From: a virus
Taxonomy: Duplodnaviria; Caudoviricetes
DNA: 55,444 bases
Direction: 5' to 3' (one strand)
IMG/VR virus record: IMGVR_UViG_3300014848_000022
Span: 1-55,444 of that record
Notes under the pieces: generated by a model
What the model was told of the DNA's origin: nothing
Seen by the model: the letters and a program-made list of their open reading frames with translations, nothing else
The model's database searches: none
Program-made: the position numbers and the translations under genes
In this document: piece by piece, positions 1-32,581 of the stretch
Position numbering within the stretch: position 1 is the stretch's first letter
Layout: each line of letters begins with the position of its first letter

Positions 1-285
1 CTACCACTTCGAGATAATGGCACATCCCTTGATCAGCGCCAGCGCCTTGTCGAGTGCCGCCCGCAGCCGCAGGTCGACCGCCGCCAGAACGCCAGCGTCG
101 TGCGCGGCATCGCCAGTCAATTGGTCGCCCACGCGCGCGGGCACGGCGGGCACGTCGGCCGGATCGATACAGGCCACGGAGACCGGCGTGAGAACCTTTT
201 CGACCCGCACATCAATGATCGGAGGCGGCGTCTTGCTAGCGCAAGCACCCAGGAGAAGCGGTAGCAATACAAACAGTGCTTTCAT
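1..285 (-). CDS. Outer-membrane lipoprotein spanin (Rz1-like)
   Basis: Signal peptide with lipobox LLGAC, Pro-rich mature part, located in the lysis cassette downstream of the i-spanin. Confidence 0.75.
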   Translation of the reverse strand: MKALFVLLPLLLGACASKTPPPIIDVRVEKVLTPVSVACIDPADVPAVPARVGDQLTGDAAHDAGVLAAVDLRLRAALDKALALIKGCAIISKW

Positions 286-287
286 TT

Positions 288-911
288 TTACCGCCCCTTA
301 TTGATTGATTCCTCGGCAGACAACTTTGTACTTAAAAGTCTGCGTCGTATCGTATTTACATGTAATCCACTGATTTCAGCTAATTCTGGTATGGTAATTT
401 GGCGACCTTGATATGAGAAGTATCTTGTTTTGCGCTGATTGCGGCATTGAGTTTTTCGGTCGACCCAGCGGCAGTTTCCCGCCTCATAACCTCTATCGTT
501 ATCAATGCGATCTAACTCAAGATTGTCAGCGTAACCGTTATTCGTCGCCCATTGATGAAAAGCAGAATAATCATCCCACTCCTCACTAAAATTTATCCCG
601 CGTCCGCCGTAATCCGCAAAATGCTTATCACGTGGATTCCTGCATCGTCCCCGCGCACCAATCCATATCTTGTGAAGCCGTGTTGCGCTTAGGCCATGCT
701 TGAGCATCTGGTCTGCACGGCATGCTAGATCGCATTTCCTGCATTTGGGCAAAGCGCAGTCGCATTTGACCGATTGCGCCATGCGCTCAAAGGGCTCAGA
801 ACCACAGTCGCATTGCCACAGATAAATGCTTCGGTGGTTGACGATCCGCAGAAATTTGAGTGCGACTAGCTTTCCAAAGCGCTGGCCGGTAAGATCAATG
901 AAAGCCGACAT
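288..911 (-). CDS. Free-standing HNH-type homing endonuclease
   Basis: Motifs IDLTGQRFGKL, CDCG, YGGRGI, LELDRIDNDRGYEAGNCRW and a C-terminal HTH-like segment; SD AAGGAG 6 nt upstream of ATG 911; visibly lower GC. Confidence 0.8.
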   Translation of the reverse strand: MSAFIDLTGQRFGKLVALKFLRIVNHRSIYLWQCDCGSEPFERMAQSVKCDCALPKCRKCDLACRADQMLKHGLSATRLHKIWIGARGRCRNPRDKHFADYGGRGINFSEEWDDYSAFHQWATNNGYADNLELDRIDNDRGYEAGNCRWVDRKTQCRNQRKTRYFSYQGRQITIPELAEISGLHVNTIRRRLLSTKLSAEESINKGR

Positions 912-912
912 C

Positions 913-1007
913 GCCATCTCCTTTGGCTTGTTGGTCAGGCTCTGGGAGGCGCGACCAACGCCTTTCAGAGCCGCTGAAATCATAGCTGAATCATGATTTG
1001 TTCTCAA
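913..1007 (-). promoter_or_regulatory. Sigma70-type promoter and structured leader of HNH gene 1
   Basis: TTGAGA(1007-1002)-17 nt-TATGAT(984-979), hairpin 938-972, TGACC, then small hairpin GCCA-AAGGAGA-TGGC. Confidence 0.7.
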
Positions 1008-1028
1008 GGGCCAGGATCATGCGGCGCA

Positions 1029-1481
1029 TCAAAGTTCCCCCTTGGCGGCCATCACAGCAGCAGGCGTTCGGCAATTCACAGAGGATGACGGCGATGCCAT
1101 CTCAATTGCGCGTGCCAGCGATTCCCGCTCGGTGTTGCGCGGATCAGTCGCAGCCAACGCATCCTTTCCAGCCTGCTTGCGTGTATCGCCATCAGCCTTG
1201 AGCCGCTGCACGGCGGCGTTCTGCAACTGGAGAGCGTCATGGAGCACATCGAAGCTTCCGCGCATGATCTCAGCGGCCCGCCGCCAGTCGTGTTCGGCGC
1301 TGCGCCACTGATCGCGCTCGGCCCTGAGGCCAGCGATCTTGATCGGCCAGATGCGCAGGCCCTCAATGCGGACCGTCTGGACCACGAGCAGCAGGGCGAG
1401 GGCGGTGCAGATCGGCCATGCCAGCGGGGCGAGGCGGGCGGCCAACCATGCCCATGCCTGGGCAAGCAGGGCGGCGATCAT
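1029..1481 (-). CDS. Inner-membrane spanin (Rz-like)
   Basis: N-terminal TM segment, long helical periplasmic part, C-terminal Cys; follows holin and endolysin. Confidence 0.7.
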   Translation of the reverse strand: MIAALLAQAWAWLAARLAPLAWPICTALALLLVVQTVRIEGLRIWPIKIAGLRAERDQWRSAEHDWRRAAEIMRGSFDVLHDALQLQNAAVQRLKADGDTRKQAGKDALAATDPRNTERESLARAIEMASPSSSVNCRTPAAVMAAKGEL

Positions 1482-1756
1482 ACCTCACCGCCCGGCAGAT
1501 TGGGCTGGGGCAAGCGCCGCGCAATCGTCGGGAGCAGGAAGGCCAAGAAGCCCACTGCCACCGATGCCACCGGCCTCCATTCCTCGGGCACATAGGCCAC
1601 GATTCGCGGCAGCAGGGTCGGGTCGCTCATGAGGTAGCCGATCAGCAGGCCGCTCACGGCAGCGATCTTGACAGACCACAGGCGCCAGAGGGCGCGCGCT
1701 TCGATCACGGCCTTGCGATAGGCCGGGCTGGCCTTGATTTTGGTCCAGATGCTCAT
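1478..1756 (-). CDS. Putative holin (2 TM)
   Basis: 92 aa with basic N-terminus and two hydrophobic segments, ATGA-coupled between endolysin and spanin. Confidence 0.65.
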   Translation of the reverse strand: MSIWTKIKASPAYRKAVIEARALWRLWSVKIAAVSGLLIGYLMSDPTLLPRIVAYVPEEWRPVASVAVGFLAFLLPTIARRLPQPNLPGGEV

Positions 1757-2451
1757 GCGATGACTCCCATGCTTCGTGCGCGACGGGCAGCAACTTCCGC
1801 CACGCCGATCAGGCCGCCATTGACGGCCCGGCGCAGGCCCGTGAAATCGCCCCGGTCGCAGTAGCTATTGGCCTTCGCGCGGCCCCAGTAGTCGCAGAAG
1901 GCGCGCGCCATCGGCACGGGCTCGCCGCCGTGGATCTGCTCAGAGGTCACCCCGAGCCGATAGAGCAGCAGGTCGTATTCGGCCCGGCCCGTGTGCTGGA
2001 TCAGCCCGCCGCCTCGACTGTTCCAGCCATCATCGTCATCCGTGCCGTTGAGCTGGTTGCCCATGCGGCCGCCATAGACGAAGTTGGCCAGCTCGCGCGG
2101 CTTGCCGACGAAGGCTTGCGCGCTCGCCAGCGTGGGGAATCGCCTGGGCCAAGTGCGCATCATGCCCGCCGCTGAATAGCTCATGTTCTCGGCAAAGCTG
2201 GTGTATCCGCCGGTCTCGTTGCCGGTCTGGGCAAGTGCCTCGGCGAGCCGGGCGCGGGTGTCCACAATGCCTGCCTTGAGAAGTTCCGGGGCCAGGGCGG
2301 CGCCAAGCGCGCGCAGCGCGGCATCGGGCTGGCGCTGGGCCTGATGGGCGAGCAGGGCAGTGCAGGTCTTGCCGCCCCACTGGCCATCGATCGGACCCGG
2401 ATCATAACCCTTGGCGGCCAATGTGGATTGCGTTTTGCGAATGTCGATCAT
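1753..2451 (-). CDS. Endolysin: peptidoglycan-binding domain plus GH19 chitinase-like domain
   Basis: GYDPGPIDGQWG PG-binding motif; QTGNETGG, ANFVYGGRMGN, RGGGLIQHTGR and VNGG GH19 motifs; ATG 2451 overlaps upstream TGA. Confidence 0.88.
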   Translation of the reverse strand: MIDIRKTQSTLAAKGYDPGPIDGQWGGKTCTALLAHQAQRQPDAALRALGAALAPELLKAGIVDTRARLAEALAQTGNETGGYTSFAENMSYSAAGMMRTWPRRFPTLASAQAFVGKPRELANFVYGGRMGNQLNGTDDDDGWNSRGGGLIQHTGRAEYDLLLYRLGVTSEQIHGGEPVPMARAFCDYWGRAKANSYCDRGDFTGLRRAVNGGLIGVAEVAARRARSMGVIA

Positions 2452-2771
2452 GGCGTTTTCTTCCATGGAGACCAGAGAGAGATATCGAGCTTTTCGGCTG
2501 TAGCGATCACCCCTTCGGCCACACCGATACAAGCGAGCCCAGCGATCGCTCCCGCTACCGTCGGAGGAACATCGACAAGAGGGCGCAGGGATTTCGCGAC
2601 GAAAGTGCCGAACAGATAGGCGCCGGACAGGCAAAGCAGGGAGGCGAGGATACGCTGCTTCCAGACCGAGGCCGGGCGCAGATATTCGCGCGCGCCGACG
2701 GCGAATGCGCCACCGCCGATCAGCTGGGCGGCATCATTTCCGATTGCGATCGGATCGCTTGGTACGGGCAT
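2448..2771 (-). CDS. Membrane protein, holin/antiholin candidate
   Basis: 107 aa with 2-3 hydrophobic segments, directly upstream of the endolysin, TGATG coupling. Confidence 0.55.
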   Translation of the reverse strand: MPVPSDPIAIGNDAAQLIGGGAFAVGAREYLRPASVWKQRILASLLCLSGAYLFGTFVAKSLRPLVDVPPTVAGAIAGLACIGVAEGVIATAEKLDISLWSPWKKTP

Positions 2772-3220
2772 CAGAGCGCCACCATGCGTAGTAGGTGCTG
2801 GAGCCGATGAGATAGACGGCCAGCCCAATGATCAATGCTGCGTCCGATGCCATCTGCCACGCCTCCAGCAATCAGGAATTGCGCAGCAGCGGCACAATTT
2901 ATGGCGGCTGCATAGGTCCAGAAACCGATATATCGGTCGCCATCAGCAATGTGCAGGCAGCGCCAGAAGATCATCCCAAGCGAGATCGCAGCGACCATGC
3001 GGTCCCTTGCCCCGCCATGGCAGGCGCGAAGGGCGACGATCATGCAGAGGTCGCAGAGCATCATCATGACCGCCCGATCATTGCCCTGATAGAGCGCGCC
3101 GATGATCCAGGATGAGGCCGTGGATGCGGCGAGGATGGCGATCACCGGTCGCGGCCCCACGCGATGGAAGGCCATCGCCCAGAGCGCGGCATGCGCGGCA
3201 TAGACGATGGCCGTTTCCAT
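2771..3220 (-). CDS. Multi-pass membrane protein
   Basis: Several hydrophobic helices; coupled at both ends; SD GGAG upstream of ATG 3220. Confidence 0.6.
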   Translation of the reverse strand: METAIVYAAHAALWAMAFHRVGPRPVIAILAASTASSWIIGALYQGNDRAVMMMLCDLCMIVALRACHGGARDRMVAAISLGMIFWRCLHIADGDRYIGFWTYAAAINCAAAAQFLIAGGVADGIGRSIDHWAGRLSHRLQHLLRMVAL

Positions 3221-3402
3221 CACTGCTCCTTCGGCTCGCTGGCGGCCATGAGCGTCTGCGGCTGCACGCCGGCGACAGCGCCGTGCGATTGCAGCAGGCC
3301 GCTCAGGATCGAGCATTCTTCCGCGTGGATCTTGGCGAGCTGCGAGGTCAGTGCAGCCTTTCGCTTACCGAGATCGATGAGGCGATTTGCGGAGTCGTCC
3401 AT
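3220..3402 (-). CDS. Hypothetical protein (60 aa)
   Basis: SD AAGGA upstream; stop overlaps next start. Confidence 0.55.
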   Translation of the reverse strand: MDDSANRLIDLGKRKAALTSQLAKIHAEECSILSGLLQSHGAVAGVQPQTLMAASEPKEQ

Positions 3403-3449
3403 TGTGCGTCCTTTGGTTTACCGGGCCGGGTGGCCGCGATGGGTTGAAA

Positions 3450-4799
3450 TCAGTTAAGCGCGATAGAGCGACGCCCGCGTTCGAGCATGGTCTTCAGGCC
3501 GACGCGAGAACCGGTATCGTTGTATGATTGATCGTATCCGGCCCATGCCGCCCGAAGCGATGCAAGGTCGGAGATTGCGGTCCCGCGCACAGTTCCCCAT
3601 GTTCCAGAGCCGCTCACCAGATACGAGTTCTGGTCGTTGATGCAGCCGCCCGCGTCGCCAGTCGCGCTGTCCCACGAGATCAGCGTGCCGATGGGCGCAT
3701 GAAACCGGCAATTTCGGACAGTGTTGTTCGCGACCTTCGAGTTGTTCTCGACGTTGATGCCGACACGCAGGGCCGGAGAAGTGGCATAGCGGTTATAGAC
3801 ATCCACATCCTCGACAAGGACGTTCTGGCAGGCCTTGAGATACAAACCGGACAAGCACCCGCCATAGACGGTCGCACGGGTGACGCGAACGCCGGTCGCA
3901 TTCTTGATCACGAGGCCCTGACCGTTCGATGTGTTGTTGCCGCCGAAGAATGAGCAGTCGATGACCGTAACGTTCGAGCACCCGGCGCCGATAACGGAAG
4001 CGTGGCCGGTCAACGCGACAGCCTTGACCCGCGTGATGATGCCGGTCGTGGTCTGGCCGGTCGAAGCATCTTCGCCGATCTGCATGCATGTCCCGGCGAC
4101 GGACGAGCCGTAGGCGCACAGGTCAAGTTCGAAGAGCTTGAAATCCAGCACGCCCTTCATGCGGAACGGAAAATAGCCGACGTGGAATTTGCACTGGACG
4201 AATGACAGGTCAGACACGAAACCAAGCTGGCTGTCGAAATTCACGCCAGCGATGGGATACGCCCCGATCTGTCGGATTTCACAGCCCTGCCAGAGGATTT
4301 TGCTGATCGTGTAGGTGCCCCCAGAGCCGGAGTCCCACACGCTCTGCATGGCGGTATTGGTCCCGCCAGATTGGCCGATCACATCCCAGCGGCAGCCGAT
4401 AAACCGGATGTTTGAAGTAGTCGTGTTGAGGAACCGCATGACAGACGTTGCCGTAGCCGAGTTGTTGCGGAACACGATGTTTCTGAACTGGATGAACGAG
4501 CAGGCGCCGACTTGGACCGAATAGTTCCCGCTGGTCCCGGTGATGACGACACTGCCCGGCGCCTGCGGATCGAGTAAGCTGTAATTCGGTTCGGGCTCGA
4601 CGAACACGAAGTTTGCGAAGTTCTGGGTCAGGTAGAGGTAGCCAGAGCCAGAGTTTTCGGCATAGGTTCCCCCTCCCATGTAGATCACATCGCCAGCGGC
4701 TGCCACAGAGAGTGCCTTGACGAGCGTTGCATAGGGCGCGCCGGTTGCACCGGTCCCGGTCGTGTCATTGCCGGTCGTGCGGACGTAAATCTCAGCCAT
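3450..4799 (-). CDS. Right-handed beta-helix (pectin lyase-like) protein, putative tailspike depolymerase
   Basis: N-terminal IYVRTTGNDTTGTG...PYAT motif and repeated NV(T/L)V-type beta-helix rungs. Confidence 0.75.
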   Translation of the reverse strand: MAEIYVRTTGNDTTGTGATGAPYATLVKALSVAAAGDVIYMGGGTYAENSGSGYLYLTQNFANFVFVEPEPNYSLLDPQAPGSVVITGTSGNYSVQVGACSFIQFRNIVFRNNSATATSVMRFLNTTTSNIRFIGCRWDVIGQSGGTNTAMQSVWDSGSGGTYTISKILWQGCEIRQIGAYPIAGVNFDSQLGFVSDLSFVQCKFHVGYFPFRMKGVLDFKLFELDLCAYGSSVAGTCMQIGEDASTGQTTTGIITRVKAVALTGHASVIGAGCSNVTVIDCSFFGGNNTSNGQGLVIKNATGVRVTRATVYGGCLSGLYLKACQNVLVEDVDVYNRYATSPALRVGINVENNSKVANNTVRNCRFHAPIGTLISWDSATGDAGGCINDQNSYLVSGSGTWGTVRGTAISDLASLRAAWAGYDQSYNDTGSRVGLKTMLERGRRSIALN

Positions 4800-31807: not shown

Positions 31808-31872
31808 TGAGTGTGTATTGAGTGTGTATTAAACCTTGCCTTGTCGTTCAATGGTGTGTACATGGTGTGTAT
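31806..31872. promoter_or_regulatory. Repeated TGTGTA boxes, putative HicB operator
   Basis: (ATTGAGTGTGT)2ATT at 31806-31830 and ATGGTGTGTAC-ATGGTGTGTAT at 31851-31872, both with 11-bp period. Confidence 0.6.
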
Positions 31873-31888
31873 CAGCAGGGAAATGAAA

Positions 31889-32077
31889 ATGCGCAGCAGC
31901 GAAGTCATCAAGAAGATCATGGCCGAGGGTTGGGAGTTTGTTCGCCAGACCGGCAGCCACCGCCATTACCGGCATGCGACACGGCCGGGAACGGTGACGG
32001 TTCCCCACCCGAAATCGGATCTCGCGAAAGGCACGCTGCGGAGCATCGAGAAGCAAAGTGGGGTTAGGCTCCTCTGA
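31889..32077 (+). CDS. hicA: HicA-family toxin
   Basis: GWEFVRQTGSHRHYRH...VTVPHPKSDL..GTLRSI signature. Confidence 0.95.
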   Translation: MRSSEVIKKIMAEGWEFVRQTGSHRHYRHATRPGTVTVPHPKSDLAKGTLRSIEKQSGVRLL

Positions 32078-32179
32078 GGGGAGCCAATCCAGTTTATGTG
32101 TATTTATGCGCATTGTGCATTGACATTATTACCCCCTCTGTTGATATACTCACTGATACACACATCAAGGAGCTTAGCT

Positions 32180-32581
32180 ATGGCAACGGTTTGGTATCCG
32201 GCCATCATCGAGCGGGCAGAAGATGGCTTCAGCGTGTTCTTTCCGGACGTTCCCGGCTGCGTATCGGCCGGCGCTACGATCCAGGAGGCAGCGCGCAATG
32301 CGGAAGAGGCCCTTTCCGGGCACATCGCCGTAGGCGTTCAGCATGGTGACCACTTCGCTGCCCCCAGCGATCTGGACGATCTCGCTTGTGATCCCGAATG
32401 CGATGAGGTTTCGCGCCTTCTCGTGCGGGCCGAACTGCCTGGAAAGGCTGTGCGGATCAACATCACCATCGATGAGAGCCTGGTTGCGGCCATCGACAAG
32501 GTCGCGAAGAACCGCAGCGGATTTCTGGCCGATGCCGCACGCGAATCTCTGGCGCGGCGCCGCGAGCTGGAGGCAGCTTAG
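32180..32581 (+). CDS. hicB: HicB-family antitoxin with RHH domain
   Basis: FSVFFPDVPGCVSAGAT..EA and RINITIDESL...NRSGFL; SD AAGGAG. Confidence 0.95.
   Translation: MATVWYPAIIERAEDGFSVFFPDVPGCVSAGATIQEAARNAEEALSGHIAVGVQHGDHFAAPSDLDDLACDPECDEVSRLLVRAELPGKAVRINITIDESLVAAIDKVAKNRSGFLADAARESLARRRELEAA

Follow-up and report, generated by a model that had tools for sequence, protein, structure and literature searches.

The lysis cassette of the provirus recorded in IMG/VR as IMGVR_UViG_3300014848_000022 appears to carry a nuclease-type insert in the conserved boundary between the genes for its i-spanin and its o-spanin, with the native o-spanin start stranded upstream of the insert and a foreign front end leading into the resident o-spanin body. 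We give this reading a probability of about 0.6. The window, by which we mean the whole stretch of 55,444 bases analysed, has its nearest relatives in Novosphingobium genomes. Its lysis cassette occupies the first 2.5 kb on the minus strand, in the order endolysin, holin-like gene, i-spanin, mini open reading frame (mini-ORF), HNH-like gene and o-spanin, and the two spanin genes lie 743 nucleotides (nt) apart. The locus is marked by two sharp breakpoints (~1293 and ~186), by steps in base composition, by an insert that is absent from the relatives and by an o-spanin front end that was found only here. Its parts, in window coordinates, are the following.

1029-1481, minus strand: i-spanin candidate of 150 amino acids, ending in ..AAKGEL, with the stop codon TGA at 1031-1029.
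1294-1481, minus strand: 5' part of the i-spanin gene (nt 1-188), the backbone ('clade A') allele.
1029-1293, minus strand: 3' part of the i-spanin gene (nt 189-453), a different allele with a lower G+C content at third codon positions (GC3).
1008-1029, minus strand: stranded ancestral o-spanin start (ATG and seven codons, MRRMILAL), assigned by its likeness to the starts of relatives.
979-1007, minus strand: sigma-70-like promoter match on the insert's left margin (TTGAGA-17-TATGAT, 10/12).
288-911, minus strand: HNH-like open reading frame (ORF) of 207 amino acids, with a likely ATG at 911, AAGGAG at 923-918 and the stop codon at 290-288.
1-285, minus strand: o-spanin candidate of 94 amino acids, with the ATG at 285, beginning MKALFVLLPLLLGAC... 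and ending with the stop codon at window bases 3-1.
241-285, minus strand: new o-spanin signal peptide and lipobox (MKALFVLLPLLLGAC), GC3 7/15, for which neither the 20 homologues nor a residue 1-40 query gave a relative.
187-240, minus strand: o-spanin codons 16-33, homologous but strongly diverged (48-57% DNA identity to seven relatives).
1-186, minus strand: o-spanin body, the backbone ('clade A') allele, with nt 100-258 identical to the metagenome relative L043 at 141 of 159 positions.

The i-spanin TGA (1031-1029) overlaps an ATG at 1029-1027 as TGATG, and the frame opened there, MRRMILALENKS, encodes MRRMILAL, continues with ENKS and stops at 993-991, giving a mini-ORF of 12 codons. The first 22 nt of this frame matched the o-spanin starts of relatives at 20 of 22 positions (L002 and L004) or at 19 of 22 (L003, L046 and L030), whereas the 14 nt just after them matched at only 1-4 of 14 positions, which is chance level. 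Because the likeness collapses after 22 nt, the left junction can be placed at 1008/1007, plus or minus a base. The 22-mer occurs a single time in the window at up to three mismatches, and 100 shuffles yielded no match at all. The uninterrupted start of three IMG/VR proviruses that are related to the window but free of the HNH-like gene reads MRRVILALLGLAAFALAGC (L002), MRCLILAPLGMTAFALAGC (L003) and MRRLILAPLGLTTLALAGC (L004), and in all three the matching start runs on into a full lipoprotein signal ending in ..ALAGC. The initial annotation had described the i-spanin stop as overlapping an MRRMILAL start and had proposed that an insertion into coding sequence stranded the old N-terminus; both proposals were borne out. 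As it had also expected, the HNH-free relatives read i-spanin stop/ATG MRR(L/V)ILA(P/L)L...ALAGC without interruption, and MRRMILAL does resemble the homologous N-termini.

We collected relatives from viral contigs, metagenome contigs, Novosphingobium genomes (one per species) and a family sample. An o-spanin match was present in 14 of the 376 Novosphingobium genomes and in 14 of 401 genomes of the family sample. The 46 loci fetched gave, once duplicates had been collapsed, 15 distinct contigs on which the two spanins could both be detected. The two genes were adjacent or overlapping on 11 of the 15 contigs (extrapolated gap, -9 to 23 nt) and 277-373 nt apart on four, with a different gene between them, and none of the 15 had an HNH-family gene between the spanins. 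In every cargo-free relative the pair is tightly coupled, the i-spanin stop either sharing a base with the o-spanin ATG or standing directly beside it, as TGATG or TAATG. A DNA search with the 2.5-kb lysis region gave no match among phage records, and a scan of genome contigs yielded only two Novosphingobium genomes, both of them already present as IMG/VR records. Since the insert is missing from all 15 relatives, the start is stranded and the composition of the insert is foreign, the event is, as judged from these comparisons, an insertion into a formerly coupled spanin pair.

We considered the opposite direction, in which the HNH-bearing order would be ancestral and the relatives would have lost the gene by deletion, together with the possibility of an assembly chimera. 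The direction of the comparable T5/Shivani case is left open in the account of Kongari et al. (PMC6139136), and all five runs that contain the full stretch were flagged as possible sources of the window DNA. Nevertheless, a 22-nt remnant of an intact start upstream of the insert is explicable by insertion only, and the count of 0 in 15 relatives and the foreign composition point the same way. Moreover, the whole 1500-nt stretch is present in five runs from two studies at 0.99-1.00 of sampled words, and the proteins occur on 11 and 13 contigs. We thus rejected an assembly artefact, given that five runs from two studies contain the stretch, and regard deletion and chimera together as very improbable.

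The insert also stands out by its composition. The G+C content falls from ~0.68 around it to 0.36-0.55 across it, and the GC3 of the HNH-like gene is 0.47, as against 0.80 for the endolysin gene and 0.80-0.87 for the surrounding genes. Along the o-spanin gene, GC3 rises stepwise from 0.47 (codons 1-15) through 0.67 (codons 16-33) to 0.82 (codons 34-94), with codons 1-33 differing from codons 34-94 at a Fisher p of 0.015. The AT-rich first o-spanin codons reported in the initial annotation are evident from these values; the individual codons it listed for the new start are real, albeit a subset from which some had been omitted. In the i-spanin gene, GC3 is 0.67 for codons 64-150 and 0.87 for codons 1-63 (Fisher p 0.004). 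The A/T-ending codons that had been remarked upon at the 3' end of this gene do exist, but they belong to a separate allele that also occurs without the HNH-like gene (run X6).

At the right side of the insert, the o-spanin ATG lies at 285, behind the HNH-like gene, as had been annotated; the HNH stop codon TAA is followed by AA and then by the ATG, leaving a gap of 2 nt. The motif AAGGGG stands 8 nt upstream of this ATG, and both motif and spacing equal those before the ancestral o-spanin start. Counted from the ATG, nt 1-45 showed 30-42% identity to seven relatives (30% to L043), and nt 46-99 showed 48-57% (48% to L043), whereas nt 100-258 were 89% identical to L043 (141/159). The alignment places this switch within ~10 nt, at nt 97-105, and the switch is a recombination breakpoint. 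At the protein level, residues 34-94 are near-identical to the related proteins P0002, P0003, P0005 and P0006, and residues 1-33 differ throughout. Residues 16-33 are identical to the closest clade at 8 of 18 positions, and the spacing TPP..I..RVE.V after the Cys is the same as in that clade (both read by eye from the alignment). The replaced piece thus amounts to ~100 nt or 33 codons, comprising a new signal peptide with its lipobox Cys and 18 residues of the mature protein that have diverged but are still homologous.

Because the diverged but homologous stretch ends at a sharp breakpoint, the replacement looks like an allele piece and not a mere start codon and signal peptide: ~100 nt imported from another, diverged o-spanin allele and joined by recombination, rather than a repair made by the cassette. 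The earlier proposal that a replacement start and signal peptide repaired the gene was right as to the new signal peptide; the piece, however, is larger than proposed, extending over ~33 codons including 18 mature residues, and appears to have been joined by recombination.

The front end was searched for in several ways. A search of ~5.8 billion proteins yielded 20 non-self o-spanin homologues, none of which had a start like that of the window's o-spanin. A protein search with residues 1-40 as the sole query returned only the window's own protein; neither this search nor the 20 homologues provided a relative whose o-spanin starts with MKALFV. Viral and metagenome contigs were scanned for the peptide patterns MKALFVLL and IIDVRVEK, and no relative emerged; a first metagenome scan with the o-spanin query gave 596 pattern matches, none of which encodes a relative. 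Window positions 188-1021 were covered by no contig of runs X6-X9, save for a 36-nt piece with six mismatches, although such contigs cannot prove absence. None of the collections searched contained the front end a second time or a gene closely matching the nuclease gene.

A narrower model would have the cassette, landing at codon 8, supply only a ribosome-binding site, an ATG and a few residues, the rest of the gene being original and fast-diverged. A hydrophobic stretch and a lipobox (LGLAAFALAGC in L002) still lay beyond the eight stranded codons of the ancestral gene, so that nothing more than a new Met-Lys start would have been required; signal peptides are also known to evolve fast, and the stepwise GC3 of the o-spanin gene (0.47, 0.67, 0.82) could be accommodated. 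Yet the jump from 48-57% to 89% identity within ~10 nt is what a breakpoint produces, not decay by point mutation, and the closest clade differs at 10 of the 18 mature positions but is near-identical over the 61 residues that follow. We therefore consider this model decidedly unlikely, and return to an imported front end as the preferred explanation.

What kind of protein the insert encodes was assessed by profile, structure and alignment. The HNH-like protein matched PHROG 374 'HNH endonuclease' (E 6.2e-50). The HNH models of Pfam (E <= 1) and NCBIfam (E <= 0.1) gave no match, and a single-sequence search of the PDB gave no HNH match. A profile of 25 family members matched I-HmuI (1u3e), an HNH homing endonuclease from Bacillus phage SPO1 that acts by nicking, over 45 positions spanning the beta-beta-alpha motif, a weak match (E 0.0023). 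The AlphaFold model has a predicted local distance difference test (pLDDT) score of 92, and its strands 132-135 and 147-150 and helix 152-157 fit this motif; a Foldseek search of the whole model against the PDB returned none at E <= 0.001. In common with I-HmuI, the family conserves the Asp, both Asn residues (the invariant Asn146 and Asn158 align to Asn residues of I-HmuI) and 'RW'. Unlike I-HmuI, it has an invariant Arg (Arg135, in 25 of 25 aligned members) that aligns to the His of 'VDHKD', the 'DH' residue that we take to be the general base. The flanking domains differ as well: the layout consists of an N-terminal Cys-rich strand region, the beta-beta-alpha motif in the middle and a helix-turn-helix-like C-terminus. 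Residues 30-60 hold a CxC ... C..C pattern that is nearly invariant in the 25 members and modelled as beta strands, and this N-terminal Cys region is probably a zinc-binding DNA-recognition module. We consider the protein, from its sequence relationships, to be a relative of HNH homing endonucleases with doubtful nuclease activity. The label 'HNH' in the initial annotation rests on the PHROG names and the weak I-HmuI profile match, but the catalytic His is an Arg.

The family is very large, with 110,716 representatives at E <= 0.001 (best identity, 52%). By tblastn it was found in 1058 phage records, all below 60% identity, the best being Enterococcus phages at 37-39%, and it often occurs as tandem repeats, with 2-5 matched stretches in longer proteins. 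Among the 376 Novosphingobium genomes, 17 carry homologues at 28-44% identity. Three other lysis cassettes hold homologues at other positions and in an orientation opposite to that of the lysis genes: G544 has its copy between the holin-like gene and the endolysin gene (L069 4140-4775), G481 adjoining the holin-like gene (L053 1501-2043), and L005 just upstream of the i-spanin gene (2954-3646). These three showed 31-39% identity in alignments, with G544 listed at 44% in the genome survey. L005 has, in addition, a classical HNH ORF (2527-2985) beside the homologue. A second copy of the gene in the window was looked for and rejected, as tblastn returned only the query gene itself and the other low-GC islands carry other genes. 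One such island (G+C content 0.49), at window 31811-32581 on the plus strand, holds two small ORFs whose translations resemble, by eye, a HicA-type toxin and a HicB-type antitoxin.

The i-spanin gene upstream of the insert is itself a mosaic. Its nt 91-188 were identical at 98 of 98 positions to the metagenome relatives L043 and L045, and its nt 189-393 were 62-63% identical to these two and 74% identical to L002. The switch between alleles falls where the gene codes for ERDQWRSAEHDW, a stretch that every relative has kept. Given the i-spanin breakpoint at ~1293 and the o-spanin breakpoint at ~186, a patch of ~1.1 kb, with the HNH-like gene in its middle, is by sequence comparison foreign to the closest backbone. 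A 235-nt contig from a wastewater metagenome (run X6, record 2) has no difference to window 1022-1226 and then continues as MRRFLPAVALAL.., a different, intact o-spanin start without the HNH-like gene. Two further contigs (run X7, record 5, and run X8, record 10) join window position 187 to position 1249 by 314 other letters, just as long as an HNH-free allele should be. A single co-conversion tract from one donor was downgraded as the full story, as the left arm of the patch occurs without the HNH-like gene in the X6 contig.

The same boundary accommodates other genes. In L044 (2950-3333) and L045 (813-1196), a cargo gene for a protein of 127 amino acids (PHROG 35913, E 2.6e-13; no Pfam or NCBIfam match) directly follows TGATGCGC, exactly after the i-spanin stop/ATGCGC, and its 3' end overlaps an intact o-spanin start. 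The L045-type allele was met again in contigs of runs X8 and X9. A DUF6527 gene occupies the boundary in L047 (2851-3132) and in G544 (L069 2816-3091; E 4.3e-21 for this copy), flanked by TGATGCG on both sides. The L047 copy is apparently frameshifted, its C-terminal half matching the G544 protein in another frame only. Behind both of these cargo genes the o-spanin retains its own MRRL.. start, and only the HNH-like insert cuts into the o-spanin gene.

These cargo genes bear on the possibility that general recombination shaped the locus, with the boundary serving as a linker at which modules and cargo are swapped, the HNH-like gene being passive and possibly inactive, and the stranded start resulting from an offset crossover. 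Two unrelated cargo genes at one boundary (the 127-amino-acid protein in L044 and L045, DUF6527 in L047 and G544) would fit this scenario, as would the fact that one i-spanin 3' allele is followed by one sequence in the window and by another in X6, and the Arg in place of the catalytic His. On the other hand, the two other cargoes are placed neatly behind ATGCG(C), with the o-spanin start undamaged, whereas the HNH-like insert alone brings a replacement front end. The GC3 of the insert is far below that of its surroundings, and its family is very large and scattered among phages, as selfish nuclease genes are. We judge general recombination with a passive HNH-like gene to be rather unlikely as an account of the whole, and continue to favor a nuclease-type insert.

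Several observations weigh against our preferred interpretation. The left arm of the patch is not specific to the HNH-bearing allele, as the HNH-free X6 contig is identical to it over window 1022-1226, and several recombination events of the ordinary kind may together have produced the mosaic, instead of one conversion tract. Nuclease activity of the HNH-like protein is doubtful, to judge from its sequence, because of the invariant Arg at the catalytic-His position and the lack of an HNH match in Pfam, NCBIfam, the PDB or Foldseek. The promoter-like site (1007-979) is the single such site in 2.8 kb, but shuffles average 0.9, so that the match is not significant by count and its position is suggestive only; of the earlier statement that the mini-ORF runs into the promoter of the HNH-like gene and then stops, the stop (993-991) was confirmed and the promoter (a 10/12 site) was not. 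The structure of the 5' leader of the gene gave no support either (z-score -1.5), and no target-site duplication or terminal or flanking repeats were found around the insert beyond matches of chance size. Finally, no donor was found, so that joint travel of the nuclease gene and the front end is conjectural. Either homing with co-conversion or ordinary modular recombination may have produced the locus.

We propose the following course of events. A low-GC segment of ~720 bp, consisting of the promoter-like site and a free-standing I-HmuI-like gene, lies 22 nt into the old o-spanin frame, with the conserved i/o-spanin boundary as the likely target. The first eight codons of the old gene are left behind as a dead 12-codon mini-ORF. 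The o-spanin is kept whole by ~100 nt of a different o-spanin 5' end, placed 2 nt past the nuclease stop and supplying a ribosome-binding site and ATG of its own, along with a signal peptide, the lipobox Cys and the initial 18 residues of the mature protein, which homologous recombination would have spliced onto the resident body at codon 33/34. The nuclease gene and the front end may travel as one unit, either by homing with co-conversion of flanks or in the manner of the fungal hybrids discussed below. The new o-spanin is presumably made and lipidated, being translated after the nuclease gene and uncoupled from the i-spanin stop. Its expression would then depend on read-through of the nuclease gene or on a promoter before it, and the conserved boundary sequence would be destroyed in the filled allele.

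No curated family of Pfam, PHROG or NCBIfam matched either protein, and the assignment as a candidate two-component spanin pair thus rests on topology, position and pairing in relatives. The i-spanin candidate has a hydrophobic N-terminal segment, where hydropathy averaged over 19 residues exceeds 1.6 for windows beginning at residues 13-24, and a charged remainder; a single charged residue lies in residues 1-36, compared with 35 in residues 37-150. The o-spanin candidate has a signal peptide with the lipobox FVLLPLLLGAC (Cys15, Lys2), where the relatives carry ..ALAGC or ..LSAC, and its N-terminus fits a PROSITE-type lipoprotein pattern. One homologue, P0049, is labelled 'Bacteriophage Rz lysis pr...' in one source. 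Upstream of the spanins, the cassette holds two further genes.

1753-2454, minus strand: endolysin, the first gene of the cassette (PHROG 181 'endolysin', E 3.9e-42), with a weak PG_binding_1 match (E 0.0011) under the Pfam cutoff.
1478-1756, minus strand: holin-like small membrane protein (Pfam DUF7940, E 3.1e-08, over the cutoff; PHROG 1356 'holin', E 4.3e-07).

At its other end, the provirus record terminates exactly at the o-spanin stop codon (window 1-3), and sequence beyond the cassette lies outside the window. In L003 and L004, the cassette is followed by a small Lys/Pro-rich secreted protein and a nuclease-like gene.

The locus offers a clean natural example of coupled or overlapping spanin genes becoming separated, a question raised by Kongari et al. 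(PMC6139136), and its stranded start shows the event to be an insertion, whereas their account leaves the direction open for the T5-like case. If our interpretation holds, an essential exported protein can survive an invasion of its own start by accepting a foreign front end via recombination. The i/o-spanin boundary of these Novosphingobium phages holds at least three cargo genes, which makes it a practical place to hunt for accessory genes. Annotation of such loci ends up with o-spanin starts called wrongly and with a mini-ORF that is spurious. The replacement of His by Arg in this very large 'HNH' family, moreover, merits biochemical attention.

The locus is a further case of a spanin-splitting nuclease insert, a kind already published for T5-like phages. 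As described by Kongari et al. (PMC6139136), a GIY-YIG gene on an insert of ~700 bp parts the i-/o-spanin pair in the T5-like phages Shivani and phiR201, where the pair overlaps in relatives, and the o-spanins of the two phages differ from those of relatives mainly in the lipoylation signal. The authors reasoned that a spanin-splitting event must regenerate this signal. Just like the published case, a homing-endonuclease-type insert here splits a spanin pair and the lipoylation signal of the o-spanin is altered. In contrast to it, the nuclease is HNH-like rather than GIY-YIG, the host phage is an alphaproteobacterial prophage and the native overlap is 1-4 nt instead of 70 bp. As measured against the published description of the T5-like phages, the stranded eight-codon start fixes the direction in our case, and the replaced piece is longer (33 codons) with a clear breakpoint.

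Homing endonuclease genes (HEGs) are also described as marking exchange boundaries, as in the 'HEG islands' of ICP1-like phages (Barth et al., PMC10448857), and SegB and MobE of phage T4 are described as free-standing homing endonucleases with co-conversion of flanks (PMC2330249, PMC2790892). As in these systems, the window has a nuclease gene with its own expression signals between essential genes, missing in close relatives and central in a foreign patch. The window differs from these systems in the change of the catalytic His to Arg and in that its cleavage site, donor and conversion tract are as yet hypothetical.

The closest parallel for the replaced gene end comes from the mobile open reading frame (mORF) hybrids of fungal mitochondria, reported for atp6 of Allomyces macrogynus and for atp6, atp9, cox2 and nad3 of Glomus (PMC3630166). 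According to that report, the mORF endonuclease brings a foreign C-terminus that continues the reading frame of the resident gene, the native end is stranded, and mobility has been demonstrated biochemically. Both the mORF hybrids so described and our locus have a native gene end stranded by an insert and a diverged foreign copy in frame with the resident body. They differ in that the 5' end is replaced here, with the native start upstream, and the 3' end there, with the native C-terminus downstream; the nucleases there are of the LAGLIDADG or GIY-YIG type, and mobility has been shown there and is a proposal here. As a tentative extension of this comparison, possible but less than likely, the nuclease-like gene and the ~100-nt front end could form one self-patching mobile unit that cuts into the start of a lipoprotein gene and brings along, in recoded form, a ribosome-binding site, a signal peptide, a lipobox and the beginning of the mature protein, a phage counterpart at the 5' end of the fungal mORF hybrids, driven by a member of a very large HNH-like family with Arg for the catalytic His. 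Such a unit would let the essential gene survive, while destroying both the target and the homology needed for loss of the insert.

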